Positions 32,863 to 57,918 are shown, counted from the stretch's first letter. The stretch: 64,000 nt of DNA from Candidatus Spongiihabitans sp. (GCA_965237725.1 OZ250151.1:2755086-2819085); one strand, 5' to 3'. Notes: a model not told the origin generated them from the sequence alone. Translations and numbers: made by a program.

Positions 32863-35265
32863 CTATTGCTCCTGGGAATATTCCAGGGGATAACCCGCAT
32901 CAATCCAATCGCTCAGACCCCGAGTACCAATGAAATATACTTTCTCATACCCCCAGGAAACCGCTCTTGCGGCTTCCCATGAGCCAGTACACGGAATCGG
33001 GTTTTCGTGACACCAGTAGGAAAAAACCACCTCTTGATTTTTACTCACAACTGTATTTAAGGTAGTCTGATTTAACTTCGGAATGCTTCCGTCCCAGTTT
33101 TCCACAACACTCCAGGCGGAAGGGAGATAGTGGGAATTGGGTATCCGCACTCTTTTCAAAATTTTTTCGATTCCTGTTTCGATGAATGTCACGCCTTTGT
33201 CGAAAAGCATTTTTGCTTGATCTGCGCCAATTCTCGTTGCACCCTCTACTTCCACCCAGGTATCTCCAACCTCTTGACTCGGGTGAACCGTAATCAGGTA
33301 ATGCCAATTCAATGCGGGAATCTGTTTGAGGCTCGTTCGGACTTGGTTTTGTATTTCTTTATTACCGAAAGTTTGAAAATTTATAGTATCGATGCCCGGG
33401 AAGTATCCATCGTTCGACGCACTTTCCATAATCCCCAGTTCGTTCTGCGCCCGGGTGAAGTGAATATAATTTGCATCCTCAATCACCGTCTCCGCATCAT
33501 CGATGCGCCCTAAATTGCTATAGCTTATCGCCAAATACAGATGAGGTAAATCGTGATTTGGATTTCGTTTTATGGCGCGTTTAAGTGTGTCAACCGCCCG
33601 GTCATATTGCTTGAGCCCAAACTGGGCCGCTCCCAGAATTGTTAAGTAGCCGGGAGAATAATAAGGATCGAGCCGCATCGCGTTCTGGATTGATGCAAGC
33701 CCTTGTTCGGGGCGTTGTGAGCGAATAAGTGCATTCGCCAAAGACGCATGGGCAGTGGCGTCGTTATTGTCCAGCGCAACTGCTTTTTCTGCTTCCAGAA
33801 CTGCTTTATCAAACAGCGATTGGGATAAATAAATCCGGGATTGCAGGTCATGGGCTAACGGCGTCGGCGATTTCAGCGCTCTTTGCAGATGCTCGTCGAT
33901 TCGATCCTCAACTTCAAACGAAATCATGCCCAAATTAAAAGCCCAGTCATTGGTCTTTACTTGCCAAAATAGAGATGCCAGGGAAGCATGGGCGAGGCTG
34001 TAATTATTATCGAGACTAACCGCCTTGTCGAAAAAAGGGATTGCAAGGGCGAGGTCCTCAGGCGTACCCAACTTATAATGCGCCCATCCACGCAGGAAGG
34101 CATCATGGGCTTCAACGTTGTCGGTGGCCTTGCTTACCTGCGGCACTTCATCCTCATCTGTCAAATTCACTTTAAGCGCCGCGACAATCTGTCGAGTAAC
34201 CTGATCTTGCAGGGCAAATATATCCTTGTGCAAGCCATCATAACGCTCGGCCCAGACATGGCCTCCTGTGGTCGCATCGATTAGCTGTGCATTGATACGA
34301 ATCTGGTCACCCGCTCGTCGCACACTTCCCTCCAACACATAGCGCACACCGAGTTCTTCGGCCACCTGACTAATCTTCTTATTCTGGCCTTTGTAAGCAA
34401 ATGACGAATTACGAGCGATAACAAATAAGCCTGGAATTTTCGAAAGATCGGTAATCAAGTCCTCTGTCATGCCGTCGGCAAAATAATTCTGACTCAAGTC
34501 GTCAGACATGTTGTCTAATGGTAAAACCGCGATGGATGGTTTGTCGGGCAATGGCAGGGCCATGCGTTCCATCGACGCCGGCTCCTCCCTTGTCTCCCAG
34601 GGCTTAAAACTCAATATCACCGCCACAGCGGCTAACAGCGCAAAGATGAGAACATAGTTCACGAGTGGCAATTGTCTTTTCCCAGATTGCACTACCGGGT
34701 TACTATTCTCGCGGGGACCAGGCAGCACTGCGCCTGACTTAAGGTTTACCTGGTAAGCCCTTATGGGTTCGGCGATATTCTTTAGTGTTTGTGGGCCCAT
34801 GTCGGAATATTCCAGCGGTAATTTACTGCCCACCGATGTATAAACCGATTCGGCAATACAAATTCCTCCCGGCTCTGCCAAACCCTCCAGCCTGGCAGCA
34901 ACATTGACCCCATCGCCAAAGATATCACCATCGTCTTCGATTACATCGCCCAGATTAATGCCTATTCGAAACTGCACTTTTTGTTCATCAGGAATGTTTT
35001 GATTGTACGCAGCAAGATTCTGTTGTACTGCCGCGGCACAAGAGAGCGCGTCCACCGCCGCTTCAAACATAGCCAGCACTGCGTCCCCGGCCGTGCTAAC
35101 AACGCGACCATGATAAGCGGGTACCAAATTAAAAATTTGATTCAAGGAATCTTTCAATCTCCGGTGTGTTGCATCTTCGTCCAGCCCAGCCAGACGACTG
35201 TAACCCGCAACATCGGCGTGCAAAATGACAGCAAGTTTTCGTGGCAGACGGCTTTCTGATTTCAT
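32863..35265 (-). CDS. Membrane class III adenylate/guanylate cyclase with TolB-N-like + TPR sensor region and a C-terminal rhodanese-like domain
   Basis: 800 aa. Cyclase domain spans aa 8-175 (LHADVAGYS, STAGDAVLAMF, GDGVNVAARLEGLAEPGGI). One TM lies at aa 199-220 (LPLVNYVLIFALLAAVAVILSF). The module at aa 244-366 reads SIAVLPLDNMSDDLSQNYFADGMTEDL ... YVLEGSVRR ... WAERYD ... DIFALQDQV. TPR-like helices follow. The C-terminus (WCHENPIPCTGSWEAARAVSWGYEKVYFIGTRGLSDWIDAGYPLE) is rhodanese-like. Confidence 0.85.
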   Translation of the reverse strand: MKSESRLPRKLAVILHADVAGYSRLAGLDEDATHRRLKDSLNQIFNLVPAYHGRVVSTAGDAVLAMFEAAVDALSCAAAVQQNLAAYNQNIPDEQKVQFRIGINLGDVIEDDGDIFGDGVNVAARLEGLAEPGGICIAESVYTSVGSKLPLEYSDMGPQTLKNIAEPIRAYQVNLKSGAVLPGPRENSNPVVQSGKRQLPLVNYVLIFALLAAVAVILSFKPWETREEPASMERMALPLPDKPSIAVLPLDNMSDDLSQNYFADGMTEDLITDLSKIPGLFVIARNSSFAYKGQNKKISQVAEELGVRYVLEGSVRRAGDQIRINAQLIDATTGGHVWAERYDGLHKDIFALQDQVTRQIVAALKVNLTDEDEVPQVSKATDNVEAHDAFLRGWAHYKLGTPEDLALAIPFFDKAVSLDNNYSLAHASLASLFWQVKTNDWAFNLGMISFEVEDRIDEHLQRALKSPTPLAHDLQSRIYLSQSLFDKAVLEAEKAVALDNNDATAHASLANALIRSQRPEQGLASIQNAMRLDPYYSPGYLTILGAAQFGLKQYDRAVDTLKRAIKRNPNHDLPHLYLAISYSNLGRIDDAETVIEDANYIHFTRAQNELGIMESASNDGYFPGIDTINFQTFGNKEIQNQVRTSLKQIPALNWHYLITVHPSQEVGDTWVEVEGATRIGADQAKMLFDKGVTFIETGIEKILKRVRIPNSHYLPSAWSVVENWDGSIPKLNQTTLNTVVSKNQEVVFSYWCHENPIPCTGSWEAARAVSWGYEKVYFIGTRGLSDWIDAGYPLEYSQEQ

Positions 35266-35327: not shown

Positions 35328-36272
35328 TCAAGGCTTAACACCATACACCGTTTCGTTAACAATGGGGTCACCAATCACCCCAGGTTGCTTTTCATAGACC
35401 ATGACGCACATCAGGCGCTTTTTGTTGCCCTGGACTTGGGTTACCCGATGAGCAGAATGACAACCGCGAAAAATTACAAGTGCACCTTCCTGGCGCTGAT
35501 AGGATTTCACTCTCGATCGATCACCGAGTAACATGGTTCGAAGCTCGTCAATATTCGGATTATCGTCCGACCGAATATTTGGCACAATCTCAAAATCCCC
35601 ACCCAGTTCCGGCGCCTGTAACATCAATGTCATGGTAAAGGCATTACCTGAATCAAAATGCCAGGCCGACTGATCGCCATCGCCATAACAAATTACATTG
35701 ACCGGCTGATATGGATCATCGCTGGGATATAGTTTTTCCGAGTCGGTAATATCTGTAACAAACTGCTGAAAATATGGATTGAAGTAAAGCGCCTTTAGGT
35801 CTGAATCATTGGGTAAGATGTGGGCGCCAATCATTTTATATTGACCTTCCGCCATGATATTTTTGGGGTGATCATCGGGCAGATCTGGGGTCTTGTCGCG
35901 GTGCAGATAGACATTGCGCATGGAATGAGCCGGGTTGGCCTGATCCTGCAATGCTAAAACCATTTCTATTTCCGACAGTCGACTGGAATCAACCAGGAAA
36001 TTCGGCAGTATGTAAACTTGTTCGCTATTGAGACTGGCCACAGCAGAATCTACAAGGCTGTGATAATCCTCTGAATCCTGCCGATCAATGGGGTAGTGGG
36101 CAAGATTCACAATCTGATCAAGGGTTTGAGAATTGCTGGCTTTGATTGAAGTGGTCATCGATTCTTGCATACCCGGATTTGATTCTGCATGTTTTTGTGA
36201 AACAGGACTGCTATGGTTTTTGACATAATTTCTGAATAATTGTAATAGCAAATCTAGTCTGTAGTATCTCAA
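35328..36272 (-). CDS. Fe(II)/2OG-dependent oxygenase
   Basis: 314-aa track ORF with a TTG start. ATG 36170 (MQESM) is an alternative start. HxD occurs in AWHFDSG and the distal His in GCHSAHRV. Confidence 0.6.
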   Translation of the reverse strand: MRYYRLDLLLQLFRNYVKNHSSPVSQKHAESNPGMQESMTTSIKASNSQTLDQIVNLAHYPIDRQDSEDYHSLVDSAVASLNSEQVYILPNFLVDSSRLSEIEMVLALQDQANPAHSMRNVYLHRDKTPDLPDDHPKNIMAEGQYKMIGAHILPNDSDLKALYFNPYFQQFVTDITDSEKLYPSDDPYQPVNVICYGDGDQSAWHFDSGNAFTMTLMLQAPELGGDFEIVPNIRSDDNPNIDELRTMLLGDRSRVKSYQRQEGALVIFRGCHSAHRVTQVQGNKKRLMCVMVYEKQPGVIGDPIVNETVYGVKP

Positions 36273-36324: not shown

Positions 36325-36753
36325 CTAATTGTACAATTGCAGTTGTTCTTTGATGGCATCAGGCCATGGCAACGGACTTCGTTTTTGTAGGTCATACAAA
36401 ACGCCGACTACAGTCCCCTGTGCCTTGCATTGATTATTAAGGAAAACACCATTTTCGAGGGTGACCGAACTTGTTCCTATTTTATTTACCCTGGCGCCGA
36501 TATCTAACTCTTGGCGATACGAAAGTTCGCCAATGAAATCTATTTCAAGGTGCACAATTGCGATCGAACTAGTTAAAGGATTAATTTCGATCCCTAAAGA
36601 TGTCAGGAATTCCATTCTGGCGCTCTCGAAATACCCGCAAATGGCGGTATGATTGCAATGCCCCAGAATATCGAGATCAGAAAATCGGACTTTGTCTTTA
36701 ATCCAAAACTTATAGTGTGATCGCTGACGTTGCGTTTCTAGATTTTCGTTCAA
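36325..36753 (-). CDS. Hotdog-fold acyl-CoA/acyl-ACP thioesterase (4HBT/YbgC-like)
   Basis: 142 aa with VRFSDLDILGHCNHTAICGYFESARMEFL. Confidence 0.7.
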   Translation of the reverse strand: MNENLETQRQRSHYKFWIKDKVRFSDLDILGHCNHTAICGYFESARMEFLTSLGIEINPLTSSIAIVHLEIDFIGELSYRQELDIGARVNKIGTSSVTLENGVFLNNQCKAQGTVVGVLYDLQKRSPLPWPDAIKEQLQLYN

Positions 36754-36804: not shown

Positions 36805-37197
36805 CTAGTAAATCTTCAAGCAAATCGAAGGCCCAGCTGTCAATTGAACATTGGTTTGATTGTTAATAATAACAAAGCTTACTTTGACAGTTCCGTTTGG
36901 CATCATTTGATCTACCGTTAATGTTAAGCCCACAGTGTCGCCAACATAAATCGCAGCCTTGAAGTCTATATTTAAATTCAATATGACGTTACCTTGACCG
37001 AGCAACTCGGTAATCGCAGCAGAAATAAAACTTACTGTTGTCATTTCGTGGGCAATACGTTTTTTGAATACCGTTTTGGAAGCAAACTCATCATCGAAAT
37101 GAATTAGATTTCGATCACCGCTAATTTCTCCAAAGTCTTCAATCAAAGACGAGGCAATCGTTTTTTCTTGTCTAACACTATCTCCAACATTGACCAT
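36805..37197 (-). CDS. MaoC-like (R)-specific dehydratase/hydratase hotdog protein
   Basis: 130 aa with FGEISGDRNLIHFDDEFASKTVFKKRIAHEM. Confidence 0.75.
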   Translation of the reverse strand: MVNVGDSVRQEKTIASSLIEDFGEISGDRNLIHFDDEFASKTVFKKRIAHEMTTVSFISAAITELLGQGNVILNLNIDFKAAIYVGDTVGLTLTVDQMMPNGTVKVSFVIINNQTNVQLTAGPSICLKIY

Positions 37198-37420
37198 GAG
37201 AAAATATTTAACTTTGTTATTATTGACTAATTATATTAGATTTAGATAAATTCTTTGCTATTTTAAGGTCAGCAGATTGGATTATTTTAATTTACATTGA
37301 TTAATATTTAAGCAAGTTCGATGGTTAATTTTCTAAAGATCCAATTTATTTCGACTAGCTTGGTGCAGAGTCGCCCAGAAGGGTTTAAATAATTAGACAA
37401 TACTTAGAATACATATTGGT

Positions 37421-38929
37421 ATGCAAAACATTCTCGATTTGCTGAACATCACTGTTAAACAATTCCCAGATAAAACAGCCATTATCTGTGAGGGCGAGAA
37501 TGTGTCATTTCGAACGTTGGGTGAGTTAGTTGAAAACGTTGCGCAACAAATACGAGAACATTGGAAAATTTGTGCAGGTGACAAGATTGCGATTTTGTTA
37601 CCAAATTGTGCAGAATTCATATTTGTATATCTTGGGATTATTCGGACTGGGGCAATTGCATTGCCCATTAATATTCGTTTAAAACCCCAGGAAATCGCAT
37701 TTATACTGGAAGATGCGAATGTAACAGCGTTAGTCGCACACCATAAGACATGGGAAACGGTCCAACAGGTTATGGCAAATTTTCCGGAATTGCGTCAGAT
37801 CATGTCAGTTGGTTTTGAGAGTGAGCTTACAACTTCTATCAAAAAGTTTTTGACTGGATGTGAATCTAAGCGCAAGATGCCTGAACTGGGACCAGCAGAT
37901 GTTGCCGCAATTATTTACACTTCGGGAACAACCGGGTTGCCCAAAGGTGCAATGATCATGCATAAAAATATTATTTTCAATGCGCGTTGCACAATCGAAG
38001 GATTTGACTTCGAGCACGAAGATCGACATTTAATAACGGTTCCACTTTTCCATGTGACCGGCTTAAATACAATTTTGATAACGTCGCTTATGCTGGGAAG
38101 TACAGTAATCGTTTCAGATAAGACGGCGCCTCGAGATGTTATGACGCTGATAGATCAACACCATGTGACCACCTATTTTGGTGTGCCGACCACCTACGTA
38201 TTGTTAATTGATTTGGGGAATATTATATCTGCGGATTTATCTAGCGTACGAATTTTTGTATATTCCGGGGCGCCTATGCCGCCAGATACAATTTTAAAAT
38301 TGGATAGCCTTTTTCCCCATATCGATTTAGTCAATTTATATGGCTTGACAGAAACCACGTCGGTAACAACAGTTTTGCCTGCGGCAGAAGCATCTGGTAG
38401 AGGGGCGTCAGTAGGAAGACCAGTGCCCAATATTCAGTTAAAAATTATTGACTCAGGGGGAATGGAGTTACCAAAGGGTGAGATTGGTGAGTTGTGCGTA
38501 AAAGGCGATAGCGTGTTTAAGGGTTATTATGGTAACCCGGGTGCCACAGAAGCTGCGATTATAAACGGTTGGTTTAGGACAGGTGATAACGCCATTATCA
38601 ACGAAGAGGGTTATATTTTTCTGAAAAGTCGCAAAAATGAGTTGATTATTGTGGGGGGTGAAAATGTTTATCCAATTGAAGTTGAAAATGTGATTTGTTC
38701 GCTTTCGGAGGTTCTCGAGTCAGCTGTTATTGGCTTAGACCATCCTGTGATGGGCCAGACTGTAAAAGCTGTTGTTGTGCTTGAAAGGAATGCACAACTA
38801 AGTGAAGATGAAATAAAATTACATTGTTCACAGAGGTTAGCGTCTTATAAGGCTCCCCAGGCGATTGAATTCAGAGAACATTTGCCACGTAACCCCTCCG
38901 GCAAAGTAGTGAAACGGTTTTTGAGTTGA
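37421..38929 (+). CDS. AMP-dependent acyl ligase (acyl-CoA or acyl-ACP forming)
   Basis: 502 aa with YTSGTTGLPKGA, YGLTETT and GWFRTGDNA. Its stop lies 7 nt from the convergent hydroxylase gene's stop. Confidence 0.8.
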   Translation: MQNILDLLNITVKQFPDKTAIICEGENVSFRTLGELVENVAQQIREHWKICAGDKIAILLPNCAEFIFVYLGIIRTGAIALPINIRLKPQEIAFILEDANVTALVAHHKTWETVQQVMANFPELRQIMSVGFESELTTSIKKFLTGCESKRKMPELGPADVAAIIYTSGTTGLPKGAMIMHKNIIFNARCTIEGFDFEHEDRHLITVPLFHVTGLNTILITSLMLGSTVIVSDKTAPRDVMTLIDQHHVTTYFGVPTTYVLLIDLGNIISADLSSVRIFVYSGAPMPPDTILKLDSLFPHIDLVNLYGLTETTSVTTVLPAAEASGRGASVGRPVPNIQLKIIDSGGMELPKGEIGELCVKGDSVFKGYYGNPGATEAAIINGWFRTGDNAIINEEGYIFLKSRKNELIIVGGENVYPIEVENVICSLSEVLESAVIGLDHPVMGQTVKAVVVLERNAQLSEDEIKLHCSQRLASYKAPQAIEFREHLPRNPSGKVVKRFLS

Positions 38930-38936
38930 TATTAAT

Positions 38937-39926
38937 TTAATGATCTAGAACGATGTCCGAATTTTTAGATTCTCGATGGTAATTTGCTATTTGAGCAATC
39001 TGGGGTAACGACTGATACGCATTGCGAAATTCTTCGAGAACAGCAATTTCCTGTTCTGAAAAACAGGGATGCCAGAAGTTCAGGAACAAAACAATTCTGA
39101 TTTCATCACTTTTGTTCCAAGCCTGGTGTCTGAACGAATCATCAAATGTTAGAAGCTTGCCTTCAACCAATGGTCGTTCGTCTTCACCTGCTTTAATACC
39201 GCATTTTCCAGGTACAACCAGGGGAAGAAGGGCGCGGATTGCTCCATTCATAGGGCCGTGATGAGGCGAAATGACAGAATGTGGATTCATAGCGGAAAAC
39301 ATGGTGAGCTCTTTTTCGAATCGTGGCAATGACTCAAGTATTCTGGTGGTTTCCGGGCAGAGCGCACAATTTTCTTCCCATTTTTCTCCAAAAAAATAAA
39401 ATAGAAATGTATTCCAACCCGGTACTAGCACTCCGTATTCGTTTCTATAGGTATTGAAAGATTGCTGCGGTTTATTTAATAAATTGAGTAGCTCTCCCTT
39501 TATTACCGGGAAAGCTTGTTCAAGTGGATTTGCCCATTCGAATTGCGCAGGGTCGTAGAACGTTTGGGCCGGTACTCCCGGAATATAAAACGCAGGACGT
39601 TGGAGCGGATGGGTATACTTTGAATTTATCTGGCTGACATTTCTGGAAAAAGTATCAAAAACTGAATCCACACCGAGAGCCTGTAATCCCGTTCTAATAG
39701 TTGGGAGTTGGTCCATATTTAAATAAATATCCCGAAGGCGTTTGGTATCAGTTAGTTTTATCTTGAGTCTGGAATTAGATTTTTCATCAGAAAGATCAGG
39801 TCGAGGAAATTTTAATCTAAGTTTGAATATTAAAACGCCAGCAAGTCCGATAATTTTGGTTCTCAGATAAAGCTGGTAAGGAAAAACCAGCGACGAATTT
39901 ATTATTCTTGAAAATAGCAGTCGCAT
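38937..39926 (-). CDS. Aspartyl/asparaginyl beta-hydroxylase family (LpxO/OlsC-like) oxygenase with an N-terminal membrane anchor
   Basis: 329 aa. Hydrophobic segment is IIGLAGVLIFKL. The C-terminal block is PGWNTFLFYFFGEKWEENCALCPETTRILESLP ... ISPHHGPMNGAIRALLPL ... TFDDSFRHQAWNKSDEIRIVLFLNFWHP. Confidence 0.7.
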   Translation of the reverse strand: MRLLFSRIINSSLVFPYQLYLRTKIIGLAGVLIFKLRLKFPRPDLSDEKSNSRLKIKLTDTKRLRDIYLNMDQLPTIRTGLQALGVDSVFDTFSRNVSQINSKYTHPLQRPAFYIPGVPAQTFYDPAQFEWANPLEQAFPVIKGELLNLLNKPQQSFNTYRNEYGVLVPGWNTFLFYFFGEKWEENCALCPETTRILESLPRFEKELTMFSAMNPHSVISPHHGPMNGAIRALLPLVVPGKCGIKAGEDERPLVEGKLLTFDDSFRHQAWNKSDEIRIVLFLNFWHPCFSEQEIAVLEEFRNAYQSLPQIAQIANYHRESKNSDIVLDH

Positions 39927-39958
39927 TGCATTTAACTGTGGTGGTGTACTCGTTGCAG

Positions 39959-40705
39959 TTATCTAATTTTATGAACGATTGTACCGATTAACTTTCCAAG
40001 GTTTTCGGCGTGAGGGCGCTGTAACATCGAAAATGTATCGCCCGACACACCAAATTCATCAACTGAATTTTTGGTCAGGTTATGCCATCCTCTTAAAATT
40101 TGGTCACTACAGTTCTCTGATCGAATTAATATTATTTTTGAAAATATTGGCCCACTTGTGAATTTCAACCCAGCATTAATATACGAATGGGTAATTATTT
40201 TTAGTCGCTCCGCGATTTCCTCTGGAAGTAAGTTGAGTTGATGGACTGTTCGTTCTTTAACGGTATTGACCATTTTCTCCACTTCAAGCAAAATTTTTTC
40301 GTCCACTTGGTGATTACTGGAGTTTTGTGGATGGGCGATACTGTCTAGTAATATTAAACCGGCTACAGTGCCGCCTTCTTTTTCAATTTGCCTAGCAATT
40401 TCAAATGCAACCGTACCTCCGAAACAATGTCCCGCAATGTAGTAAGGGCCTTGTTCCTGCCTATCCGTTATTTCGGATACATAGGCGCAAGCGATTTCTT
40501 CGATGTTTTCATGGGGCGCTTGATCCACATATAGCCCTGTAGGTTCGAACGAGAAGAAATTAATTGGAGGAGATGTCGCCCGTGCGAGGCTTATAAGTGA
40601 CAACGGGGTGGTTCCTGCTGATGGGATCATGAATAAGCTAGGCCCTGACATATCTTTGGTTAGCTCACAAAGATACTGTTGATTATTTGATTGGCTCGGG
40701 GTCAA
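39959..40705 (-). CDS. Type II thioesterase (alpha/beta hydrolase)
   Basis: 248 aa with the nucleophile elbow GHCFGG. It starts 12 nt downstream of the PKS stop. Confidence 0.75.
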   Translation of the reverse strand: MTPSQSNNQQYLCELTKDMSGPSLFMIPSAGTTPLSLISLARATSPPINFFSFEPTGLYVDQAPHENIEEIACAYVSEITDRQEQGPYYIAGHCFGGTVAFEIARQIEKEGGTVAGLILLDSIAHPQNSSNHQVDEKILLEVEKMVNTVKERTVHQLNLLPEEIAERLKIITHSYINAGLKFTSGPIFSKIILIRSENCSDQILRGWHNLTKNSVDEFGVSGDTFSMLQRPHAENLGKLIGTIVHKIR

Positions 40706-40717
40706 TTTTTTGATTTG

Positions 40718-47155: not shown

Positions 47156-47268
47156 GATGAACTGATACTTTTACTGATTTATTTAGTTTAGATTATAGAC
47201 CACACAAATTTATTGTTCGACAATTGTGGAGCTGTTAAAAATTTAATTTTGATTTTGTATAATATGCA

Positions 47269-48777: not shown

Positions 48778-48797
48778 CTCGGGATGGTTGATATAAA

Positions 48798-49547
48798 TTG
48801 TTGAAGCAGTGGCATGAATACAAAGCGCCAATTGCGTTATCCGGCGACCGTGTTGATATATGGTGTATTTGGTTTGAAGACGGTAGCGAATCGATTTTAG
48901 ACTATTTAGATATTCTTAGCAGTGAAGAACGAAAGCGTGCGAAACGGTTTCATCGAAAAGTAGATTTCCACAGATTTGTTGTGGCCAGATACGTTTTACG
49001 TACACTACTTGGTGGAATTGTGGGAGCCCAACCGTCGTCTCTGGAATTCAGCACAAATAAATATGGCAAACCAAAGTTGTTGCCCAAGCTGTCTCTTAAT
49101 CAAAATTCTGAATCGATAAATTTCAATCTATCCCATGCAGGTGAATATGGATTAGTTGCAATTTCAACTGCAAAAAAAATTGGTATCGATATTGAGCGAA
49201 TCAGAGAAATTGATAATATTGAAGAACTGGCAAAACGATCATTTTCCAATGATGAGTATTTGCAATTTATTACCCAGCCAGAGTTTGATCGGTTAAATAC
49301 ATTTTTTCGATGCTGGACCCGAAAAGAAGCATTCATAAAGGCTATCGGTAAAGGCCTAAACCAGCCTCTGGATTCTTTCTCGGTATCAAGTTCCCCAGAT
49401 CAAGAAGTTAAATTTTTATCACTGCCTCCAGGATATCAACTAAAAAATTGGGCTCTATACGATATTGGCATTAACCAACATTACCGTGCAGCTTTAGCGA
49501 TAGATCGAGCTATAACGACCGTAGCGTGCTGGCAGTGGCAACAATAA
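48798..49547 (+). CDS. Sfp-type 4'-phosphopantetheinyl transferase
   Basis: 249 aa with a TTG start. Motifs are FNLSHAGEYGLVAIS, IGIDIERI and WTRKEAFIKAIGKGL. Confidence 0.85.
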   Translation: MLKQWHEYKAPIALSGDRVDIWCIWFEDGSESILDYLDILSSEERKRAKRFHRKVDFHRFVVARYVLRTLLGGIVGAQPSSLEFSTNKYGKPKLLPKLSLNQNSESINFNLSHAGEYGLVAISTAKKIGIDIERIREIDNIEELAKRSFSNDEYLQFITQPEFDRLNTFFRCWTRKEAFIKAIGKGLNQPLDSFSVSSSPDQEVKFLSLPPGYQLKNWALYDIGINQHYRAALAIDRAITTVACWQWQQ

Positions 49548-49566: not shown

Positions 49567-50589
49567 TCATCCCACCGCAAGATAATCCATTTCAGCATTG
49601 TAACCAAATTCAATAAGTATCTGCTCAATTTCTTCCCTCGCGCCATGGTTGGTAACGTAAATCAGTACAAACGGTTTTTTGACTTGATGCTTTAACCAAT
49701 CGGGAGCAAATACTTCAATGCCATTAAGTTTGTTGCCAATCTTTTTGGGGTCAATGTCAATCCAGGCTCGTGGTGTAAACCCTTTTTCTATCAATAGCTG
49801 GCAACGCTTTCGGGTTTTTCTGCCAGCACCCCAATAAACAATTTTACGATCTTGATTGAGTTGGGAATCTTGGGCCATGTATTCTGCCCTGACCCTATCA
49901 AATGCTTGTCGACTATAAGCAGGATGAGTTCGTGACAAACGATTTGGACTATCTCGCCAACGCAATAGAACTTCCGGAAGTTTAACCATGGCGCATCCAT
50001 CAGCGTGCATCCGCAGCCAGAGTTCATAATCTTCGGGGAAGTCGCCTCTGCGATATCCCCCTAATTGTTCAATGGTTGATTTTCTAAACATCACGCTGGG
50101 GTGGGCAAATGGAGATTCAACATAAATCTGTTGGCGAATTTGCTCCGGGGTCAACACGCTATTCTGCCAGCGCATGTATTCTGTGTACCCGCTGAGCATA
50201 GGCGCTTCGGAGAACATTTCAACCTGACTGGAGATTAGATCCATGTCCGGAAACTCTAGCGATGCTTGCATAAGTTTTTCCATGCGCTGGGGATGCATAA
50301 TATCGTCGCCATCCATTCGAACGATCCATGTGGATTGCGCATTTTCAATACCAAAATTCAGCGCATCAACCAGACCTTCACCTGGATTGTTGAATAGTCG
50401 AAAACGCGGATCGTCATAACTGTTTAGTATTTCGCTTGAGCGATCATTACTATGATCGTCTACCGCAATGAGATTGAATTCCGGAAATGTCTGATCTTGA
50501 ATCGAATCCAGAGTTTCCGAAAATGTATTTTCTGCATTTCGAAAGGGCAGAAGAATGGATAATTTAGTTGTAGATTCGTTCAAACGCAT
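49567..50589 (-). CDS. Family 2 glycosyltransferase with an extra C-terminal domain of about 100 aa
   Basis: 340 aa with LSILLPFRNAENTFSETLDSIQDQTFPEFNLIAVDDHSND and the DxD motif in RMDGDDIM. The C-terminal segment KIVYWGAGRKTRKRCQLL is Rossmann-like. Confidence 0.8.
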   Translation of the reverse strand: MRLNESTTKLSILLPFRNAENTFSETLDSIQDQTFPEFNLIAVDDHSNDRSSEILNSYDDPRFRLFNNPGEGLVDALNFGIENAQSTWIVRMDGDDIMHPQRMEKLMQASLEFPDMDLISSQVEMFSEAPMLSGYTEYMRWQNSVLTPEQIRQQIYVESPFAHPSVMFRKSTIEQLGGYRRGDFPEDYELWLRMHADGCAMVKLPEVLLRWRDSPNRLSRTHPAYSRQAFDRVRAEYMAQDSQLNQDRKIVYWGAGRKTRKRCQLLIEKGFTPRAWIDIDPKKIGNKLNGIEVFAPDWLKHQVKKPFVLIYVTNHGAREEIEQILIEFGYNAEMDYLAVG

Positions 50590-51004
50590 CCACGCTGAAT
50601 CCGTTTAGCCTTTTGCTGCCAACCAAAATTACCGGCACACCTCGACCGCCCAATTTATCGTATTCCCGCCTCGCTTTATCTGAGTTTTCGATGTCGTATT
50701 CTTTGTAAGGAATGCCTTTGCTGGCGAAATATTCTTTGGCCTTCTTACAATAGGGACACCAACTGGTCCCATACATTATGACCGTATTTATTGACGAATC
50801 AGAATTTGAATAATTAGACTCGATAGAGGTGCTTTCGTAGCTGTTGATTTTGATTTCTACTTCAGAAAAAGCTTCGGTTTCCGGTGGCGTATCGCTGAAA
50901 TGGGTGACCCCGTTTTCATCTGTCCATTTATATACGTCATTAGCAGAAATGGGGTAATTCAGACATAAAATTATTGACATGGCTATGAATGCCTGGGCTT
51001 TCAT
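50564..51004 (-). CDS. Secreted DUF4124-like domain fused to a glutaredoxin/NrdH-like domain
   Basis: 146 aa. A signal-like N-terminus (MKAQAFIAMSIILCLNYPISA) is followed by VYKWTDENGVTHFSDTPP (DUF4124 signature). The thioredoxin-fold part has MYGTSWCPYCKKAKEYF ... GVPVILVG. The ATG overlaps the upstream stop (ATGA at 51001-51004). Confidence 0.75.
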   Translation of the reverse strand: MKAQAFIAMSIILCLNYPISANDVYKWTDENGVTHFSDTPPETEAFSEVEIKINSYESTSIESNYSNSDSSINTVIMYGTSWCPYCKKAKEYFASKGIPYKEYDIENSDKARREYDKLGGRGVPVILVGSKRLNGFSVDAFERIYN

Positions 51005-54000
51005 GATTGCTCAGTAAATCCCATTGCGGATAAGTTAGATTTAAAGCTATCGCGAATTTCTTTGTTGTAACTGTATGTGCGAATTAGCCCGGAAACGCCA
51101 AATTCAGCGTCCATGCTTTTAATTTCACTGGCGACTCGTTTTGCAGCCGCATTATCACCTGATGCAACCAGGGCATCGACCAGATAAAACCGACATAACG
51201 GTGATTCGGGCTCAACATCGACGGCAGAATTTAGTATCTCAATGGCTTTTGTAATATTCCCGGTTTGTTTGTAAGCATGAGCGCCAGGGAGTAGATACCA
51301 GTTTGGGTAAACCGGACACAGTTGGATAGATTGTTCGAAATGAGAGAAGGATTTTTGGTATTCCCCGGCATAGACATAGGTCATCGCCATCAATGCCTGG
51401 ACCTCGGAATTTCCAGGCGACAATGCAATGGCATTTTCACAAAACTCGATAGCCAGTATGGGTTCACCAGACCTAACATAGGCACAGCCTTTCAAGGATA
51501 AGGCATCCGGGTGTTGTGGATCAATTTCAAGTGCTTTGTCAGCGGCTTCGTGGCATAGACTCAGAGATTCTTCCATTGACTCTCCCCAGCCTGTGTAAGC
51601 TTCCTGCCAGTGGACCCAGCCTTTTATAATCCAGGCCGTAGCATAATCAGGATCAAGCGCCAGCGCTTTTAAGGCCAGGCGTTGCGCTTCCAGGACGTTT
51701 TTACGAATATAACTATCCTGTAACTCAGCCGCTATTGCACATGATTCCCAGGCTTTTATATTGTTTGTCCCCCGCGCCCAGTCCAGGGCAGACAGGCCAT
51801 CGGCAAGTTGAACTCGCATGGCGATGGTTATGTTATTGGTGATTTCATCCTGGACTGCAAAAATATCGTCAAGCTTTCGATCGTATTGTTCAACCCAGCA
51901 ATTATCTCCTGTACGAGAATCGATTAACTGAACGTTAACCCTGATTTTCTTACCGCTTTTTCGTATGCTGCCATCGAGGATGTATCGTACGTTTTGTTCA
52001 TCGGCTATCTGACGAATAGGAGCTTTTCTGTCTTTATAGACGGATGTGGAATAACTCGATACCACACGAATTTGCCGAAAGCGTGACAATATGGTCACCA
52101 GGTCGTTGGCAATGCCATTGCTGAAGTGCGCCTGTTCGGGATCGCCGCTCATATTCTCGAAAGGCAGCACGGCGATGGAAGGTAAGGCATCCGGCGCATT
52201 ATCATTGGAACCTCGCTGTTCGCTAAATCCCATCAATTCCAGATTGTTGTGAAATCGTTGCCGCTCTTCTTCATCCTGACTGTGGAACAGGATGACGCCA
52301 CTGATATTCATCGAATGTTCCAGCGATCGTATTTCATCAGCAATCTGTTTTGCTTTGTCCGGTTTGCCCGCTACCAAATAGGCGTCTATCAAGTAAAATC
52401 GGGTCAGCGGCGATTCGGGTTCATCAGCGATGCTTTTCAGAAACAGGGCAATGGCATCTTCCAGCTTACCCAGATCCTGGTAAATATTGCCGCCTACAAG
52501 GGATAACCAGCTCGGGGAAATGGGGCTCAGGCGAACCGCGGTTTTGTAATAATCCAGGGCCTCTTTGGGTCTCCCGGCATATGAATGAACATAAGCGCAT
52601 AGACCAAGGGCCTCAGAGTTGCCTGGAGAGATTTCTACCGCCCGACGGGCAATTGTAATGGAAATTTCAGGGTCTCCCTTTCGCATCATCACAATAAATG
52701 ATTGCAATATCAATGTGCTGGTGTTGTCGGGATCTAAAGTTATAGATTTTTCAGCAGCTGTTTCGGCTGCTTCGAGCAAGGGTTCCATGGCATTCATGTG
52801 AGAAATATAAGCTTCCTGCCAGTTGATCCATCCCAGGATCGACCAGGCAAGGCCATACTCCGGGTCATATTCAATAGCAATATGGATTAATCGACGAGCC
52901 TCAACGATATTGTCCCTGATATAGGTGTCACTAAGGTCACCCGCCCGAACAGTGTATTCCCAGGCCTTAAGACTTTTGGTTTTTATAGCCTTCTCTCTGG
53001 CTTTATCGCCGTCGGCCAGCTGAATCCGCATGGCGGTGGCGATACTCAGGGTGATTTCGTCCTGCACCGCAAAAATATCATCGAGCTTGCGGTCATAGGT
53101 TTCCGACCAACACATTTCCTCGGTTGTGGAATCAATTAGTTCGGTATTGACACGAACTTTTTTTCCGCTCTTGCGTATCCGACCTTCCAGTATATATCGG
53201 GTGTTCTGTTCGGCGGCAATCTCGGCGATGGTTGCCTTTCGTTCCTTATAGGCATAAGTGGAATGCAGTGCAACTACACGCATATTGCGAAAATGGGATA
53301 ACGTCGAAATAATATCGCTGGTAATACCATCGCTGAAAAATTCCTGTTCTGGATCACCACTCAGATTTTCGAAAGGCAGCACAGCAATGGAAGGAAGTTC
53401 GTCTGAGTTTACTTCAAGATAATCACACAACCCTGCTTTCAATATCAAATCAAAGAACTTTTCAAAATCCTCATCGTATTTATAAGTTAGAAAATCATAA
53501 AAGAACGAACGCCATTGCGCCACAGAATCAGGATACGCGGGCATTTTCTGCCTCGCTAGAACCTGATATTTAGACATTTCAATTTTGGCTTGCTGGGTGT
53601 CACCCATAGCGGCAAGACAAACTGCAATTTGAGCCAAACAACTATCCGGCATGTGTGGCAGTGAACGGAATACTTGAATTGCTTTTTCAAATTTGCCAAG
53701 GTCCCGATAAACTTCACCCACAATCCACCCCGCATAGGCATGTTGAGGGTCAAGTTTTAAGCATTTATCCGCGTAGTCAAGGGCGCTATCGAACTGTCGT
53801 GCAGATGCTAGTCCCCAGGCCTTCATGGCATAACCGTCAGGAAGAGTGGGATTAAGTTCGATCGCTTTATCTGCGTGAAAATCACCACGATCAAATTCTC
53901 TAGCAAAATACAAATATTCACTCATAAAACCATGTACAAAGGCATTTTCTGGGTCGAGCTCCAGGGCACGCTCGATATGGTATTTCCCCTTGGGTAATAT

Positions 54001-57000
54001 GGCTTTTCTGTCAACAGTCCAGTTTTCGTTAAAATTTACATATTGCACAGCTGCAAGATACGCATGTGCGTTCGCATTATCTGGATCAAGTTCAATAGAT
54101 TGCTCTAAAAGCGTCTGGCCTTTTTTATTGTCCTCGGGAGAGAATTTATGCACGTGATAAATTCCTCGAAGGTAGAAATCGTAGCTTTTCAGATTGCTGA
54201 GCGGTTTTCGTGCGGCAGATTGTTGGATGTCCAGGTCAATACGCCCACGCAAGGTGCTAGCGATGGTCTGGCTTAATTCTTCTTCAAGATCAAAAATATC
54301 TTCCAGCTCTGAATCGTAGTGTTTTCCCCATAGCTGATTGCCACTACTTGATTCAATCAGTTGAGCCGCAATACGAAGTCGATTTCCCGATTTGCGCACA
54401 CTGCCGTCAACCATGTATTGCACATTAAGCTGTTCCGCAATATCTAATATAGATTCATTGCTATCACGATAAACAAAACTGGTATGGCTGGACTTAACAA
54501 TTAGTCCTTTAAACATACCTAATCCTTGAATTATGCTTTCGCTGATGCCGTCACTAAAATATTCCTGCTCGGGGTCATTGGAAAGGTTTTTAAACGGCAG
54601 GACAGCAATGGTTGGAAAGATACTCAGGTCGCTGGTGTCAATCGCAGCTGGCTGTAATTCACAAATTCCTGCATTTTCCAATATTTCAAATTGGGCATCG
54701 ATAATTTGTGTGTCTTCAAATGGCATATTGTCACGCCAATAGCTATACCATTCATCCCGCGAACTTGGAAATGCCTTCATTGATTCTCGAGCACCCTTTA
54801 AAAACCTTTGTATGGCTTCTCGTGCTTTTTTTGCTTCACCGTTCTTCATATAACAAATTGACAGGATCGCAAGCAGGTAGTGTGGGGTTGTATTTGATCC
54901 TGAAATTGTTTTTATGGCGTCTTCGTACTTTTCGCTATTTAATTGTGATTCAGCAATTTGCCAATGTCCCCAGGCATGGTGGGGATCAATTTCCATACAT
55001 TTCACTGCGTACCCCAATGCGGAATCGTATTGACCTGTCATGTTCGACAGCAGTGCTTTTTGGGCGAGGGCTTCAGGGTTACCTGGATTATTTTTTATTT
55101 CTTTATCAATTGTGGCACCTGCAGCGTCGTATTTTCGGCTAAAAATCAATTGTTCAGTACATGCGGTGAGTGCAACGCTGCTATTCGGAGTCAAATCAAT
55201 TGCTTTCTCAACATGCTCACGCGCTAGTTGAAATGACTTTTTATGGTTCATTGTCCAACGTTCCAGCCAAATCATGGTGTGGTTGTAGCTAAGAATTGCA
55301 TGTGCGCGAGAATTGCTGGGTTCGAGTCCAATGCATTTATTCAATTTATCTAGTGCAATAATCGAATCTTCTGCCGTGAATCGTTGGGTATGGTAGAGGC
55401 CTTCAAGTAGAAAATCATAGGCTTGGTGATCCCCTGCTCTTTTAGAAATCGCTATTTTCTGAAGATCAGATTCGATTCGACCCGTCACATTTCCAGCAAT
55501 GGTTCTGCTGAGCTCTTCCTCGAGATCGAAGATGTCCTTTAGCTCTGAATCAAATCGACCACTCCAAACCTGATTTCCGTTTTGTGCTGCAACCAACTGA
55601 ACGGAAACTCGAATACGATCGTTGGACTTTCGTATGCTCCCTTCAACCACATAATCAACGTCGAGTTCTTTTGAAATTTCCCCAATGGATTTAATTTGTT
55701 CCTTAAAAGCAAAGCTCGCATTTCTAGATTTGACCAACATATCCGGAAATAGGGAAAGGTTGTTGATGACGCTTTCTGTGATTCCGTCACTGAAATATTC
55801 TTGACTTGGATCACCAGATAAATTATCAAATGGTAGTACCACTATAGCTGGAATCTTGTCGCCGTTATCAGGAATTGCCGTTTCTTCAATATATTGTTCC
55901 AAACCCGCATCACAGAGCGCATCAAAGGGATAGTCGCTGTCGTAATCGTGTTTGGCGGCTGACGTTGCCTGCCAGAGTCTGTGCCAGTCTTCCAGGGTGG
56001 CGGGGGGCGTGACCATGTTCTTACGTACCGTCTCGACGTATTTCTGTAGATGCTTCTCGGCGGTAGTATGTTGGCCCAGTCTCTCGTAGCATGCCGCAAG
56101 CCAACCTTCTATTTCATCAGAAGGATTCGGCATCATTTTGAAGGTATCCAGTGCATCTTGGAAGCGCTTGCCAGTGTAATAGGCAATTCCATTGACCCAG
56201 TCTATCCATGGATGAAATGGATCCAGGGTTCTGCACGCGTCCGCCATTTCCAGAGCAATTTCTACATTGCCAAGTCCAGCGTGCACCGAACTCAAGGTCG
56301 CCAAGGTCTCAATATCATCGGGGTTCAGCCGGTACGCGCGCTCAGCTCGATCTTCGCAACGATCGTAATCTCGATCGAATAAAAGGAATTCCGCGAAACT
56401 TGATAAAATCACCGACTCATCGGGTCCCAGCTCAACCGCTTTTTCAATGTGGTGGCGCGCTCTTTCGAAATTTTCCTGACGGGGTTCGGTCCAGCCTGAT
56501 AACCAGTCGAGGATATTGACGCGATACAAATAGTTATGGGCAAATTCACAATCCGGATCCAGTGCAATACACTTTTCCAGTGCCTCTCTACTGAGCAAGT
56601 TATTTTCAGGGTTAAATTTATTTAGATGATATTTACCTCGCATCAGCAAATCGTAGCTGTCCATATCCTTTGCGGGTTTTCGATAGGCGATTTCCTCATC
56701 AGAAATATCCATCTTGCCTTTGATATTGGAAACGATAGTTCTTATTAGTTCGTCTTCTACATCGAAGATTTTTTCAAGATCGGTATCGAATCGCTTACCC
56801 CAGATCTGCTTACCAGATTCTGTATTGACCAGCTGAGTTGTGATCCTCAGTTTCTTTGGGGTTTTGCGAACGCTGCCTTCGATGATATAGCGGACTTTGT
56901 ACTTGTCGGAAATTTCATTGGCAGTCAGGTTTTGCTGTCCAATGGCATTGGAGTAGTTTCTGGAGAGAATATTGAGAGAAGGGTAGTTGGTTAATCCGAC

Positions 57001-57918
57001 AATGACCCCTTCGGTAATGCCTTCGCTGAAGTATTGTTGTTCTGAATCGTTGGAAAGATTTTCAAAAGGCATAACCAGAATTGCGTTTTCATTCGGATCA
57101 AGACTTTTATCGGCTGGTTTTTTCAGCGGTGATTTCTCCGGACTCGAAGTTTGGGGCTTCGGTGCTACCGGAGTTTGCTTACCGTCACGAATCTCATCTC
57201 GTAGTTCATTGGTCTGGGTTTCGGGTTCAACCCCAAGCTCCAGTTTTAATGTTTCACTACAACGCTTGTACGCCAGTAGTGCATGATTGCGATTGCCTTT
57301 CGCAGCATATGCCTGCATCAGTAGTCGCCATGCAGATTCTTCAAGGGGGTCGTATTCGACCAATCGTTCAGCGGATTCGATTGCCAGTTTGTATTTTTTA
57401 TCAGATATTTGTAATTGGCCAAGGTTTGATAGGATTTCCACAATCAGGCGCTTGAACCGATCTCTTTCGTGGGCTAGCCAGCCCTGGCTTGCAGCATCAC
57501 GAATGGTTATGCCCTCCAAAAACTCACCCTGATACAGTTTTGCCGCTTTGGTCAGGCTTTTTATATCGGTTTCCCCAGCAAGCTGTTCAAATTCCAGGGC
57601 ATCTACCTGAATCAAATCTGCATCCAGGGAAACCGTGGTCCGTTCGATTTCCAGCGGCATCTCGTCCATGCTAACCAGGGTTTTTTTAATGGCGCTTAAG
57701 GCCTGGCGTAGACTATTTCGGGCCTGCTCCTCGCTGCGATTACTCCACAAGAGATTGAGTAAACGTTCCCTTGGATGGCGGATGCCCGGTGCTAATGCAA
57801 GATAAGCCAACAGGACTTCGGCTTTCCGTGTTGACAGGGTAAGCCGATCTCCGGATTTCGCTTTCGAAGACAGTCGGCATTCGATTTGCCCCAGTAACTT
57901 AAGGTTTAGCCCCACCAA
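51001..57918 (-). CDS. Giant SARP/BTAD-type transcriptional regulator with five tandem TolB-N-like + TPR modules
   Basis: Uninterrupted 2305-aa ORF. Residues 1-245 form a winged helix (RKAEVLLAYLALAPGIRHPRERLLNLLW) plus BTAD (YQGEFLEG ... AWRLLMQAYAAKGNRNHALLAYKRCSETLKLELGVEP). The AVLPF-x-N-x-S-x-D module starts at aa 279, 691, 1103, 1511 and 1915, corresponding to minus-strand nt 57084, 55848, 54612, 53388 and 52176. Confidence 0.9.
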   Translation of the reverse strand: MVGLNLKLLGQIECRLSSKAKSGDRLTLSTRKAEVLLAYLALAPGIRHPRERLLNLLWSNRSEEQARNSLRQALSAIKKTLVSMDEMPLEIERTTVSLDADLIQVDALEFEQLAGETDIKSLTKAAKLYQGEFLEGITIRDAASQGWLAHERDRFKRLIVEILSNLGQLQISDKKYKLAIESAERLVEYDPLEESAWRLLMQAYAAKGNRNHALLAYKRCSETLKLELGVEPETQTNELRDEIRDGKQTPVAPKPQTSSPEKSPLKKPADKSLDPNENAILVMPFENLSNDSEQQYFSEGITEGVIVGLTNYPSLNILSRNYSNAIGQQNLTANEISDKYKVRYIIEGSVRKTPKKLRITTQLVNTESGKQIWGKRFDTDLEKIFDVEDELIRTIVSNIKGKMDISDEEIAYRKPAKDMDSYDLLMRGKYHLNKFNPENNLLSREALEKCIALDPDCEFAHNYLYRVNILDWLSGWTEPRQENFERARHHIEKAVELGPDESVILSSFAEFLLFDRDYDRCEDRAERAYRLNPDDIETLATLSSVHAGLGNVEIALEMADACRTLDPFHPWIDWVNGIAYYTGKRFQDALDTFKMMPNPSDEIEGWLAACYERLGQHTTAEKHLQKYVETVRKNMVTPPATLEDWHRLWQATSAAKHDYDSDYPFDALCDAGLEQYIEETAIPDNGDKIPAIVVLPFDNLSGDPSQEYFSDGITESVINNLSLFPDMLVKSRNASFAFKEQIKSIGEISKELDVDYVVEGSIRKSNDRIRVSVQLVAAQNGNQVWSGRFDSELKDIFDLEEELSRTIAGNVTGRIESDLQKIAISKRAGDHQAYDFLLEGLYHTQRFTAEDSIIALDKLNKCIGLEPSNSRAHAILSYNHTMIWLERWTMNHKKSFQLAREHVEKAIDLTPNSSVALTACTEQLIFSRKYDAAGATIDKEIKNNPGNPEALAQKALLSNMTGQYDSALGYAVKCMEIDPHHAWGHWQIAESQLNSEKYEDAIKTISGSNTTPHYLLAILSICYMKNGEAKKAREAIQRFLKGARESMKAFPSSRDEWYSYWRDNMPFEDTQIIDAQFEILENAGICELQPAAIDTSDLSIFPTIAVLPFKNLSNDPEQEYFSDGISESIIQGLGMFKGLIVKSSHTSFVYRDSNESILDIAEQLNVQYMVDGSVRKSGNRLRIAAQLIESSSGNQLWGKHYDSELEDIFDLEEELSQTIASTLRGRIDLDIQQSAARKPLSNLKSYDFYLRGIYHVHKFSPEDNKKGQTLLEQSIELDPDNANAHAYLAAVQYVNFNENWTVDRKAILPKGKYHIERALELDPENAFVHGFMSEYLYFAREFDRGDFHADKAIELNPTLPDGYAMKAWGLASARQFDSALDYADKCLKLDPQHAYAGWIVGEVYRDLGKFEKAIQVFRSLPHMPDSCLAQIAVCLAAMGDTQQAKIEMSKYQVLARQKMPAYPDSVAQWRSFFYDFLTYKYDEDFEKFFDLILKAGLCDYLEVNSDELPSIAVLPFENLSGDPEQEFFSDGITSDIISTLSHFRNMRVVALHSTYAYKERKATIAEIAAEQNTRYILEGRIRKSGKKVRVNTELIDSTTEEMCWSETYDRKLDDIFAVQDEITLSIATAMRIQLADGDKAREKAIKTKSLKAWEYTVRAGDLSDTYIRDNIVEARRLIHIAIEYDPEYGLAWSILGWINWQEAYISHMNAMEPLLEAAETAAEKSITLDPDNTSTLILQSFIVMMRKGDPEISITIARRAVEISPGNSEALGLCAYVHSYAGRPKEALDYYKTAVRLSPISPSWLSLVGGNIYQDLGKLEDAIALFLKSIADEPESPLTRFYLIDAYLVAGKPDKAKQIADEIRSLEHSMNISGVILFHSQDEEERQRFHNNLELMGFSEQRGSNDNAPDALPSIAVLPFENMSGDPEQAHFSNGIANDLVTILSRFRQIRVVSSYSTSVYKDRKAPIRQIADEQNVRYILDGSIRKSGKKIRVNVQLIDSRTGDNCWVEQYDRKLDDIFAVQDEITNNITIAMRVQLADGLSALDWARGTNNIKAWESCAIAAELQDSYIRKNVLEAQRLALKALALDPDYATAWIIKGWVHWQEAYTGWGESMEESLSLCHEAADKALEIDPQHPDALSLKGCAYVRSGEPILAIEFCENAIALSPGNSEVQALMAMTYVYAGEYQKSFSHFEQSIQLCPVYPNWYLLPGAHAYKQTGNITKAIEILNSAVDVEPESPLCRFYLVDALVASGDNAAAKRVASEIKSMDAEFGVSGLIRTYSYNKEIRDSFKSNLSAMGFTEQS

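Follow-up and report, generated by a model that had tools for sequence, protein, structure and literature searches.

Genes at the locus and their polyketide synthase

In a stretch of 64,000 nucleotides (nt) from Candidatus Spongiihabitans sp. (GCA_965237725.1 OZ250151.1:2755086-2819085), in the following called the window, positions 32863-57918 hold a group of genes around a type I polyketide synthase (PKS) of 2145 amino acids (aa). Using profile searches with Pfam and NCBIfam for the open reading frames (ORFs) of the window, we recovered all 13 ORFs of a first-pass annotation of this DNA with exactly the coordinates and strands proposed there, and the profiles confirmed each of its domain assignments:

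32863-35265, minus strand: class III nucleotidyl cyclase (Pfam Guanylate_cyc, then TPR)
35328-36272, minus strand: Fe/2-oxoglutarate (2OG) oxygenase, HalD/WelO5-like (Pfam HalD, 6.4e-13)
36325-36753, minus strand: YbgC/4HBT hotdog acyl-CoA thioesterase (Pfam 4HBT_2, 1e-15; NCBIfam YbgC/FadM subfamily)
36805-37197, minus strand: MaoC-type (R)-hydratase/dehydratase, single hotdog (Pfam MaoC, 2.9e-18)
37421-38929, plus strand: acyl-CoA-ligase-type adenylating enzyme, fatty-acid-CoA ligase (FACL)-like, 502 aa (Pfam AMP-binding, 7.5e-93)
38937-39926, minus strand: AspH-family Fe/2OG oxygenase, OlsC/LpxO-like (Pfam Asp_Arg_Hydrox, 2.5e-42)
39959-40705, minus strand: free-standing thioesterase (Pfam Thioesterase, 8e-24)
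40718-47155, minus strand: type I PKS, 2145 aa (Pfam KS, AT, KR, DH, ER and ACP)
47605-48777, plus strand: carrier protein-thioesterase didomain (Pfam PP-binding and Thioesterase)
48798-49547, plus strand: Sfp/HetI-type phosphopantetheinyl transferase (PPTase; Pfam ACPS and AASDHPPT_N)
49567-50589, minus strand: GT2 glycosyltransferase (Pfam GT2; EpsE-like GT-A)
50564-51004, minus strand: secreted DUF4124-glutaredoxin (signal peptide, CPYC)
51001-57918, minus strand: SARP-like giant regulator, 2305 aa (Pfam BTAD, 1.7e-27, and TPR arrays)

On the minus strand the PKS gene is followed by those of the free-standing thioesterase and the AspH-family oxygenase with gaps of 12 and 32 nt, and the ligase gene is convergent on this string (7 nt) and divergent from the MaoC gene (223 nt). 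The pair of didomain and PPTase (47605-49547, plus strand) is divergent from the PKS with 449 nt in between. The left-hand minus-strand string runs from MaoC over 4HBT and the 2OG enzyme to the cyclase with gaps of 51, 52 and 62 nt, the last of which is also the spacing reported in the first-pass annotation. In the right-hand string of regulator, glutaredoxin and GT2 the genes overlap by 4 nt (glutaredoxin and regulator) and 26 nt (GT2 and glutaredoxin), and this string is convergent on the PPTase gene at a distance of 19 nt. A promoter and terminator scan of the window gave site counts close to or below those of shuffled sequence and no information on operons; since these counts are no better than chance, it is the spacing that speaks for co-transcription within the strings. 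Neither tRNA genes nor Rfam matches were found in the window. The 449-nt divergent region also contains a 30-nt inverted repeat (47399-47428 and 47550-47579, 77 % complementary, arms 121 nt apart), which could be an operator, an RNA structure or a chance occurrence.

According to the positions of its motifs the PKS has the domain order ketosynthase (KS), acyltransferase (AT), psi-ketoreductase (psiKR), ketoreductase (KR), dehydratase (DH), enoylreductase (ER) and acyl carrier protein (ACP), with the following motifs:

KS: C198, H336 and H376
AT: GHSIG645 and HGFH743
KR: GGVGYLG1163 and Y1319
DH: H1414 and D1573
ER: HAASGGVG1813 (MDR-type ER)
carrier: GGDS2103

The fully reducing KS-AT module noted in the first-pass annotation thus holds in so far as the full set is present in one polypeptide, but the order is not the canonical KS-AT-DH-ER-KR-ACP. 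As a contiguous pair, psiKR and KR align together with the stand-alone KR from MlnE. According to the HAFH rule an AT motif of this kind belongs to the malonyl type, and by its HGFH743 motif the AT of the window PKS is malonyl-type. As every catalytic motif is present we judge the PKS to be intact; missing catalytic residues, the earlier caveat to its activity, were looked for and all motifs were found intact. From the best 120 database homologues 45 have a length of 2090-2170 aa, the same domain order and the same motifs. The catalytic motifs are kept across these 45 family members, which have the features of type I cis-AT fully reducing PKSs and are annotated from Planctomycetes, Burkholderiales and other Betaproteobacteria. 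The family is one of widespread synthases of ~2130 aa, with no characterised stand-alone member among the matches. The 4.41-Mb source genome also encodes a paralogue of this family, P0112 (2142 aa, 39 % identity), whose domains follow the same order.

The same non-canonical order, KS-AT-KR-DH-ER-carrier, has been described for the PKS module of ClbB from colibactin biosynthesis (PMC5490422), and this was the only description found in the literature on the exact PKS domain string and on TolB-like/TPR cyclases. The two are also alike in malonyl extension with full reduction. In a tblastn comparison with the clbB locus of CFT073 the KS-AT part is 37 % identical and residues 821-2136 align in one colinear stretch of 1399 columns, with an identity in this reductive half of as little as 25 %. 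ClbB carries an upstream module of a nonribosomal peptide synthetase (NRPS) in the same polypeptide and acts a single time within its assembly line, in contrast to the window PKS, which stands alone and has no NRPS partner, and except for a PPTase the two clusters have nothing else in common.

With regard to size and independence the window PKS resembles the iterative, fully reducing PKSs of the type of mycocerosic acid synthase (MAS), which are stand-alone proteins of ~2100 aa with a full KS/AT/DH/ER/KR/ACP set as well, and the MAS-like structure 9d2z is a top solved-structure match for its KS-AT part (E 2.9e-187). The pairing of a PKS with a fatty-acid-activating ligase also follows a mycobacterial logic. 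However, the domains of MAS follow the canonical order KS-AT-DH-ER-KR-ACP and its extender is methylmalonyl, whereas the window PKS carries its KR before DH and ER and has a malonyl-type AT, and the window ligase with its 502 aa lacks an extension of fatty acyl-AMP ligase length.

The heterocyst-glycolipid (hgl) clusters, to which the locus had been likened in the first-pass annotation, and the clusters for polyunsaturated fatty acids (PUFA) resemble it in their HetI-like PPTase, in a PKS-type DH that comes after a KR and in having a glycosyltransferase close by. An hgl island is marked by an HglE-type synthase with ACP repeats, the HglC/HglD pair of KS and chain length factor (CLF) with DH/ER partners, the carrier-reductase HglB and a glycosyltransferase of its own, and a PUFA synthase by PfaA with tandem ACPs, PfaC with KS-CLF and FabA-type DHs and the enoyl reductase PfaD. 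The window differs from them as it has no tandem ACPs, KS-CLF pair, FabA-type DH, PfaD-type ER or thioester reductase, and its glycosyltransferase is of the GT2 type and part of another operon. All components defining the hgl analogy fail except the PPTase, and even this scores 170 bits against the NCBIfam HetI model and is thus under the cut-off of 370 bits. Membership in the hgl clusters was rejected as nothing but this PPTase and the unlinked GT2 would support it, and a PUFA synthase was rejected because the PfaA model reaches 340 instead of 1010 bits and covers KS-AT only, CLF and FabA-type DH are missing and the ER is of the MDR type.

A conserved core of ligase, thioesterase and PKS

We read the neighbourhoods of 10 loci with PKSs of this family and of 95 PKS loci in total. 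A metagenome scan with the family alignment gave 80 loci, of which only L016, L049 and partly L017 are true family members, the rest being other PKSs. The nearest metagenomic relatives, L097 and L098, repeat the arrangement of the window with the PKS, then the thioesterase and then the convergent ligase. The identities to the window are 54 % (PKS), 38 % (thioesterase) and 70 % (ligase C-terminus) for L097 and 65 % (ligase), 39 % (thioesterase) and 57 % (PKS C-terminus) for L098. The AspH-like gene is absent between thioesterase and ligase in both of them, and upstream of its ligase L098 shows hypothetical genes and a transposase and no MaoC, 4HBT, 2OG or cyclase gene. A thioesterase directly downstream of the family PKS is also present in L014, L016 and L049, and an oxygenase beside it in L012 (JmjC/cupin protein) and L049 (Rieske-like fragment); L101 has no recognisable partner on its single readable flank. 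Neither the cyclase/regulator module nor MaoC, 4HBT, the 2OG enzyme or GT2 has a homologue near the PKS in the 95 PKS loci, so that the proposed co-occurrence of such a PKS with TolB-like/TPR regulators was seen in 0 of 95, and an AspH-like neighbour was found in one unrelated PKS locus among them. Judged by these sequence comparisons, the conserved core consists of the FACL-type ligase, the thioesterase and the 2145-aa PKS, and none of the AspH-like, MaoC, 4HBT, 2OG, GT2, cyclase and regulator genes is conserved beside the PKS of the relatives.

Four loci from Roseibacillus/Verrucomicrobiota (L002-L004 and L007) were considered as orthologues and rejected, as they encode a hybrid of KS-AT-ACP-aminotransferase and an NRPS module of condensation (C), adenylation (A), thiolation (T) and thioesterase (TE) domains instead. 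The best match among the PLSDB plasmids was 38 % identical, to cyanobacterial PKSs and with no synteny. No syntenic cluster was found in GTDB representative genomes, JGI metagenomes, PLSDB plasmids and the neighbourhoods of 12 homologues, which agrees with the initial failure to match the gene set to a named cluster: it has no close counterpart in the genome, metagenome and plasmid collections searched.

The ligase reaches 472 bits against the NCBIfam model for long-chain-fatty-acid-CoA ligase, whose cut-off is 476 bits. Its orthologues in L098 and L097 are 65-70 % identical and occupy the equivalent place with respect to thioesterase and PKS, while homologues at 60-63 % are located in housekeeping contexts (ffh-rpsP-trmD-rplS in both, with uppS-cdsA following in L099). 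The identity to the NRPS A domains of the family loci is only 22-25 %. As the best inference from these comparisons, the substrate of the ligase would be of the fatty-acid type.

The thioesterase following the PKS shows the motif GHCFGG and has a Cys in place of the nucleophilic Ser, which corrects the first-pass annotation. GHC[FLW]GG is present in all five PKS-adjacent thioesterases compared (window 39959-40705, L097 6636-7433, L098 11590-12354, L014 16446-17264 and L049 17640-18392), with the window enzyme being 33-39 % identical to the other four. In four of the five the usual His motif is replaced by GDxFSM with a His seven residues later (PH), and the enzyme from L049 has its His in the usual place and none at the later position. 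In the obafluorin synthetase a thioesterase with GXCXG supports the formation of a beta-lactone (PMC6668435). By this analogy the release chemistry might go beyond hydrolysis, but the parallel is to be taken as a lead and not as a test. In the didomain protein, a PCP-like GCDS motif is followed by a thioesterase with GYSFGG and GTHGH, that is with canonical Ser and His. A homologue search for it gave only three distant matches (best 28 %) and no synteny information.

The base composition separates the core from its surroundings as well. The G+C content at third codon positions (GC3) is 0.32-0.38 in the core block from MaoC to PPTase (36805-49547; MaoC itself 0.37) and 0.45-0.52 in the background genes, and the differences amount to several standard errors at these gene lengths. 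From the 2OG gene outward both flanking strings are at or near the composition of the background genome (cyclase 0.49, 2OG enzyme 0.45, regulator 0.44, glutaredoxin 0.47), with GT2 (0.40) being intermediate, and the 4HBT gene lies between core and background too. The core looks like a foreign insertion between resident genes; a repeat search for the insertion boundaries of the low-GC block gave no convincing flanking repeats. A second low-GC patch is located left of the cyclase (29392-32690, GC3 0.32-0.41) and encodes a 370-aa protein without Pfam or NCBIfam match, an AHSA1/SRPBCC protein, an ArsR regulator and an S-adenosylmethionine-dependent methyltransferase. In its composition the window thus forms a mosaic between 29 and 50 kb.

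The low-GC3 block, the fact that every protein of the window is a singleton when clustered at 90 % identity and the accessory set that is not conserved would also fit a decaying or silent remnant of horizontal acquisition without a current product. We regard this as very improbable, as all ORFs are intact including the frames of 2145 and 2305 aa and every catalytic motif checked is preserved. Our own reading, to which we assign a probability of about 60 %, is that the locus is a genuine type I PKS cassette for a fatty-acyl type of product, orphan so far, with a core of three genes plus local partners, namely the didomain protein, the PPTase and the AspH-family oxygenase. The MaoC-4HBT-2OG-cyclase and regulator-glutaredoxin-GT2 strings are most likely transcription units separate from this core.

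Signalling proteins and their shared sensor module

The cyclase consists of the cytoplasmic cyclase domain (aa 14-162), a transmembrane (TM) segment (201-219), a sensor module (235-600) and a rhodanese-like C-terminus (~705-797). The cyclase domain reaches 44.4 bits in Pfam (cut-off 21.9), the two metal-binding Asp (D18 and D61) and the motif GVNVAARL with the transition-state Asn/Arg are readable, and it has the features of class III. At the position of the adenine-specifying Lys (K-x-x-G-D) the sequence reads S-T-A-G-D by eye and without a structure-based alignment (nt 35068-35265, the first 66 residues), and because of this Ser the specificity for cAMP or cGMP is uncertain. The giant regulator has a head of putative winged helix-turn-helix (wHTH) and BTAD (aa 1-270) followed by five tandem CadC-sensor-like plus TPR modules and no TM segment. 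Its BTAD domain scores 97 bits; for the OmpR-type winged helix that precedes BTAD in SARP (AfsR/DnrI) regulators, the match consists of a weak alignment to AfsR/BagI (residues 22-265, E 1e-6). The five copies were located by their similarity to the module of the cyclase:

57096-56056, minus strand: first module copy of the regulator
55851-54865, minus strand: second module copy
54615-53566, minus strand: third module copy
53394-52333, minus strand: fourth module copy
52194-51181, minus strand: fifth module copy

They are 28-32 % identical to aa 235-600 of the cyclase (E 1e-43 to 1e-48), and no further copy was found elsewhere in the 64-kb window. In an AlphaFold model (pLDDT 81.6) the module is predicted to form an alpha/beta subdomain followed by helical repeats. 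With Foldseek this model matches the periplasmic domain of CadC (3ly7 and 3ly9) along the entire module with 358-366 columns (E 5e-8 to 1e-7), but with only 13-14 % identity and a TM-score of ~0.3, and NCBIfam gives weak CadC and HilA matches. An exhaustive search with the module resulted in 28,803 cluster representatives at E <= 1e-30. Many of these are proteins of ~770-800 aa laid out like the cyclase, with identities of up to 64 %, and tandem arrays of 3-9 modules are numerous among them too. In 59 of the best 150 matches the cyclase domain is present as well. Full-length relatives of the regulator are P0256 (61 %) and P0252 (45 %), and P0265 (64 %) and P0349 are orthologues of the cyclase. 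The earlier idea of a shared, uncharacterised sensor module is thus right with respect to the sharing, as the cyclase has one copy and the regulator has five, but the module is abundant and CadC-like.

In contrast to CadC itself, a ToxR-like regulator responding to pH and lysine, the module occurs here joined to a cyclase and, in five tandem copies lacking a membrane anchor, downstream of a BTAD domain. With SARP/AfsR proteins the regulator shares the BTAD domain and a putative winged helix in its N-terminal region, but it has no NB-ARC ATPase and its C-terminal part is made up of the five CadC-like/TPR modules. Moreover, it is found in a low-GC genome with Gram-negative-type genes and not in an actinomycete. 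In the 803-nt gap upstream of the regulator and divergent from it, two tandem small ORFs (58118-58363 and 58416-58616, plus strand; 81 and 66 aa) with similar N-termini (MRKVN... and MRKVR...FAQG) are present, which are marked by a 38-nt direct repeat.

In the first-pass annotation the locus was seen as one co-transcribed unit bracketed by regulators. In its full form this would mean that the whole 25-kb stretch is a single biosynthetic-regulatory unit, in which one signal, sensed through the shared module by the SARP-like regulator and, with cAMP or cGMP as messenger, by the cyclase, would switch on the synthesis of a hydroxylated and glycosylated lipid. The tight spacing, the same-strand strings and the presence of the module on either side of the core and nowhere else in the window would fit such a unit, and SARP/BTAD regulators are classic cluster-situated activators. 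However, only ligase, thioesterase and PKS recur, the module was found near the PKS in none of the 10 family loci or the 95 PKS loci, and L098 has its ligase without the left-hand string. The signalling genes also differ in composition from the core, GT2 is of a generic polysaccharide type and convergent to the PPTase, and with such a huge module family a chance adjacency is not negligible: if the 4.41-Mb genome had ~10 module-bearing genes, two of them would fall within 25 kb by chance in about half of the cases, and with 2 such genes in about 1 %. Furthermore, the module is predicted to be periplasmic in the cyclase, where it follows the TM segment, and cytoplasmic in the regulator with its DNA-binding head and no TM segment; because of this different location one common ligand for both proteins is disfavoured. 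We consider the single unit unlikely, and a control of the PKS by cyclase and regulator, which is unsupported apart from their adjacency in this genome, as possible.

Some observations weigh against our preferred reading of a three-gene core with local partners, and part of them favours the single unit. Both signalling genes share one module type, are 16 kb apart and flank the core, and such a module on both sides could mean a real functional coupling. The MaoC gene is core-like in composition but heads the string ending in the cyclase, and the unit boundaries are accordingly not clean. The contigs of L097 and L098 are short, with 7.8 and 27 kb, and an absence of the right-hand flank cannot be judged in them. 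Finally, neither a C domain nor a second KS is present that could pass the chain onto the carrier of the didomain protein.

Proposed product, tailoring enzymes and further genes of the window

For the cassette we propose the following biosynthesis model. The PPTase would activate both carrier domains, and the ligase would convert a fatty acid in its free form, or an acid resembling it, to the acyl-adenylate and then to the thioester, which would prime the KS. The AT would load malonyl units, and KR, DH and ER would fully reduce each extension in one or several rounds. Release of the chain might then be the task of the Cys thioesterase, of the didomain with its thioesterase or of both, and the AspH-family oxygenase would add a hydroxyl group in analogy to the acyl 2-hydroxylases OlsC and LpxO. 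The chain-extended, hydroxylated lipid named in the first-pass annotation is a fair reading of the FACL-type ligase, the malonyl-type AT, the intact KR, DH and ER and the AspH-family oxygenase; a fully reduced fatty-acyl product is plausible and it is probably hydroxylated.

With OlsC and LpxO the AspH-like enzyme of the window has the Pfam family and the Fe-binding His in common, and both Fe-binding His align with human AspH. However, it is far below the NCBIfam equivalog cut-offs (OlsC 110 bits instead of 450, LpxO 76 bits instead of 500) and no TM segment is predicted, so by sequence it is a member at the level of the AspH family only and not an OlsC/LpxO equivalog. The second oxygenase, the 2OG enzyme, belongs to the BesD/HalB/HalD fold family and carries an HxD...H triad, with its WHFD aligning with WHWG of HalB (7u6i). 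The Pfam HalD/WelO5 matches had offered a halogenase as an explanation, which was rejected as the motif is HxD and not the HxG/A by which Fe/2OG halogenases of the BesD/HalB/HalD, WelO5 and SyrB2 types replace the carboxylate of the HxD/E facial triad; because of this triad the enzyme is considered a hydroxylase type. MaoC shows the motif GDRNLIH with the catalytic D and H, and the catalytic residues of 4HBT are kept as well. GT2 combines a generic EpsE-like GT-A domain with a C-terminal Rossmann/CoA-binding-like domain. It is the last gene of the regulator string and co-oriented only with the regulator and the periplasmic glutaredoxin, and with this position and its generic type the possible glycosylation of the product suggested earlier is not supported.

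A different product would result if ligase and didomain were a split A-T-TE, which forms a lipo-amino acid or a similar NRPS-like conjugate with the BesD-family hydroxylase modifying the amino-acid moiety. More distant family PKSs indeed adjoin a single-module C-A-T-TE NRPS (L010, L013, L014/15 and L016) or an A-T-TE protein (L014), the carrier motif of the window PKS (GGDSI) is PCP-like and among solved structures the didomain comes nearest to the T-TE part of the C-A-T-TE NRPS AB3403 (4zxh), with the thioesterase of Pks13 next. Free amino acids are the substrates of HalB and HalD, to which the 2OG enzyme is related, but its match to HalB is weak (E 2.6e-4). As no condensation domain was found anywhere in the window and the ligase is much closer to FACL-type ligases (60-70 %) than to NRPS A domains (22-25 %), we regard such a conjugate as improbable and prefer the fatty-acyl cassette.

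An active core in this cassette would link a PKS family that is widespread and has so far gone unstudied to a product. The non-canonical domain order of this family has up to now been described solely for ClbB, where the module is embedded. Most likely the cassette would make a modified fatty acid with a hydroxyl group, destined for the membrane or the cell surface, which would be useful to know but not surprising. The regulatory idea would be more interesting, but it is based on adjacency in a single genome and on a very abundant sensor family. The main interest that is left is in the unstudied family of PKS and Cys thioesterase. As a long shot, the ~2130-aa synthases together with their Cys thioesterases might represent a widespread class of stand-alone iterative lipid synthases with release by transthioesterification or lactone formation, which here would be under a two-branch sensing by cyclic nucleotide and SARP via one CadC-like module on both sides of the membrane.

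Outside of the locus, the window contains an IS30-type transposase (3119-4288; HTH_38 and rve) and an operon similar to those for heterotetrameric sarcosine oxidase (9339-14596). A second AMP-binding ligase (17274-18899) and a 3-hydroxyacyl-CoA dehydrogenase (15168-16079) are encoded divergently at a distance of 1.2 kb.

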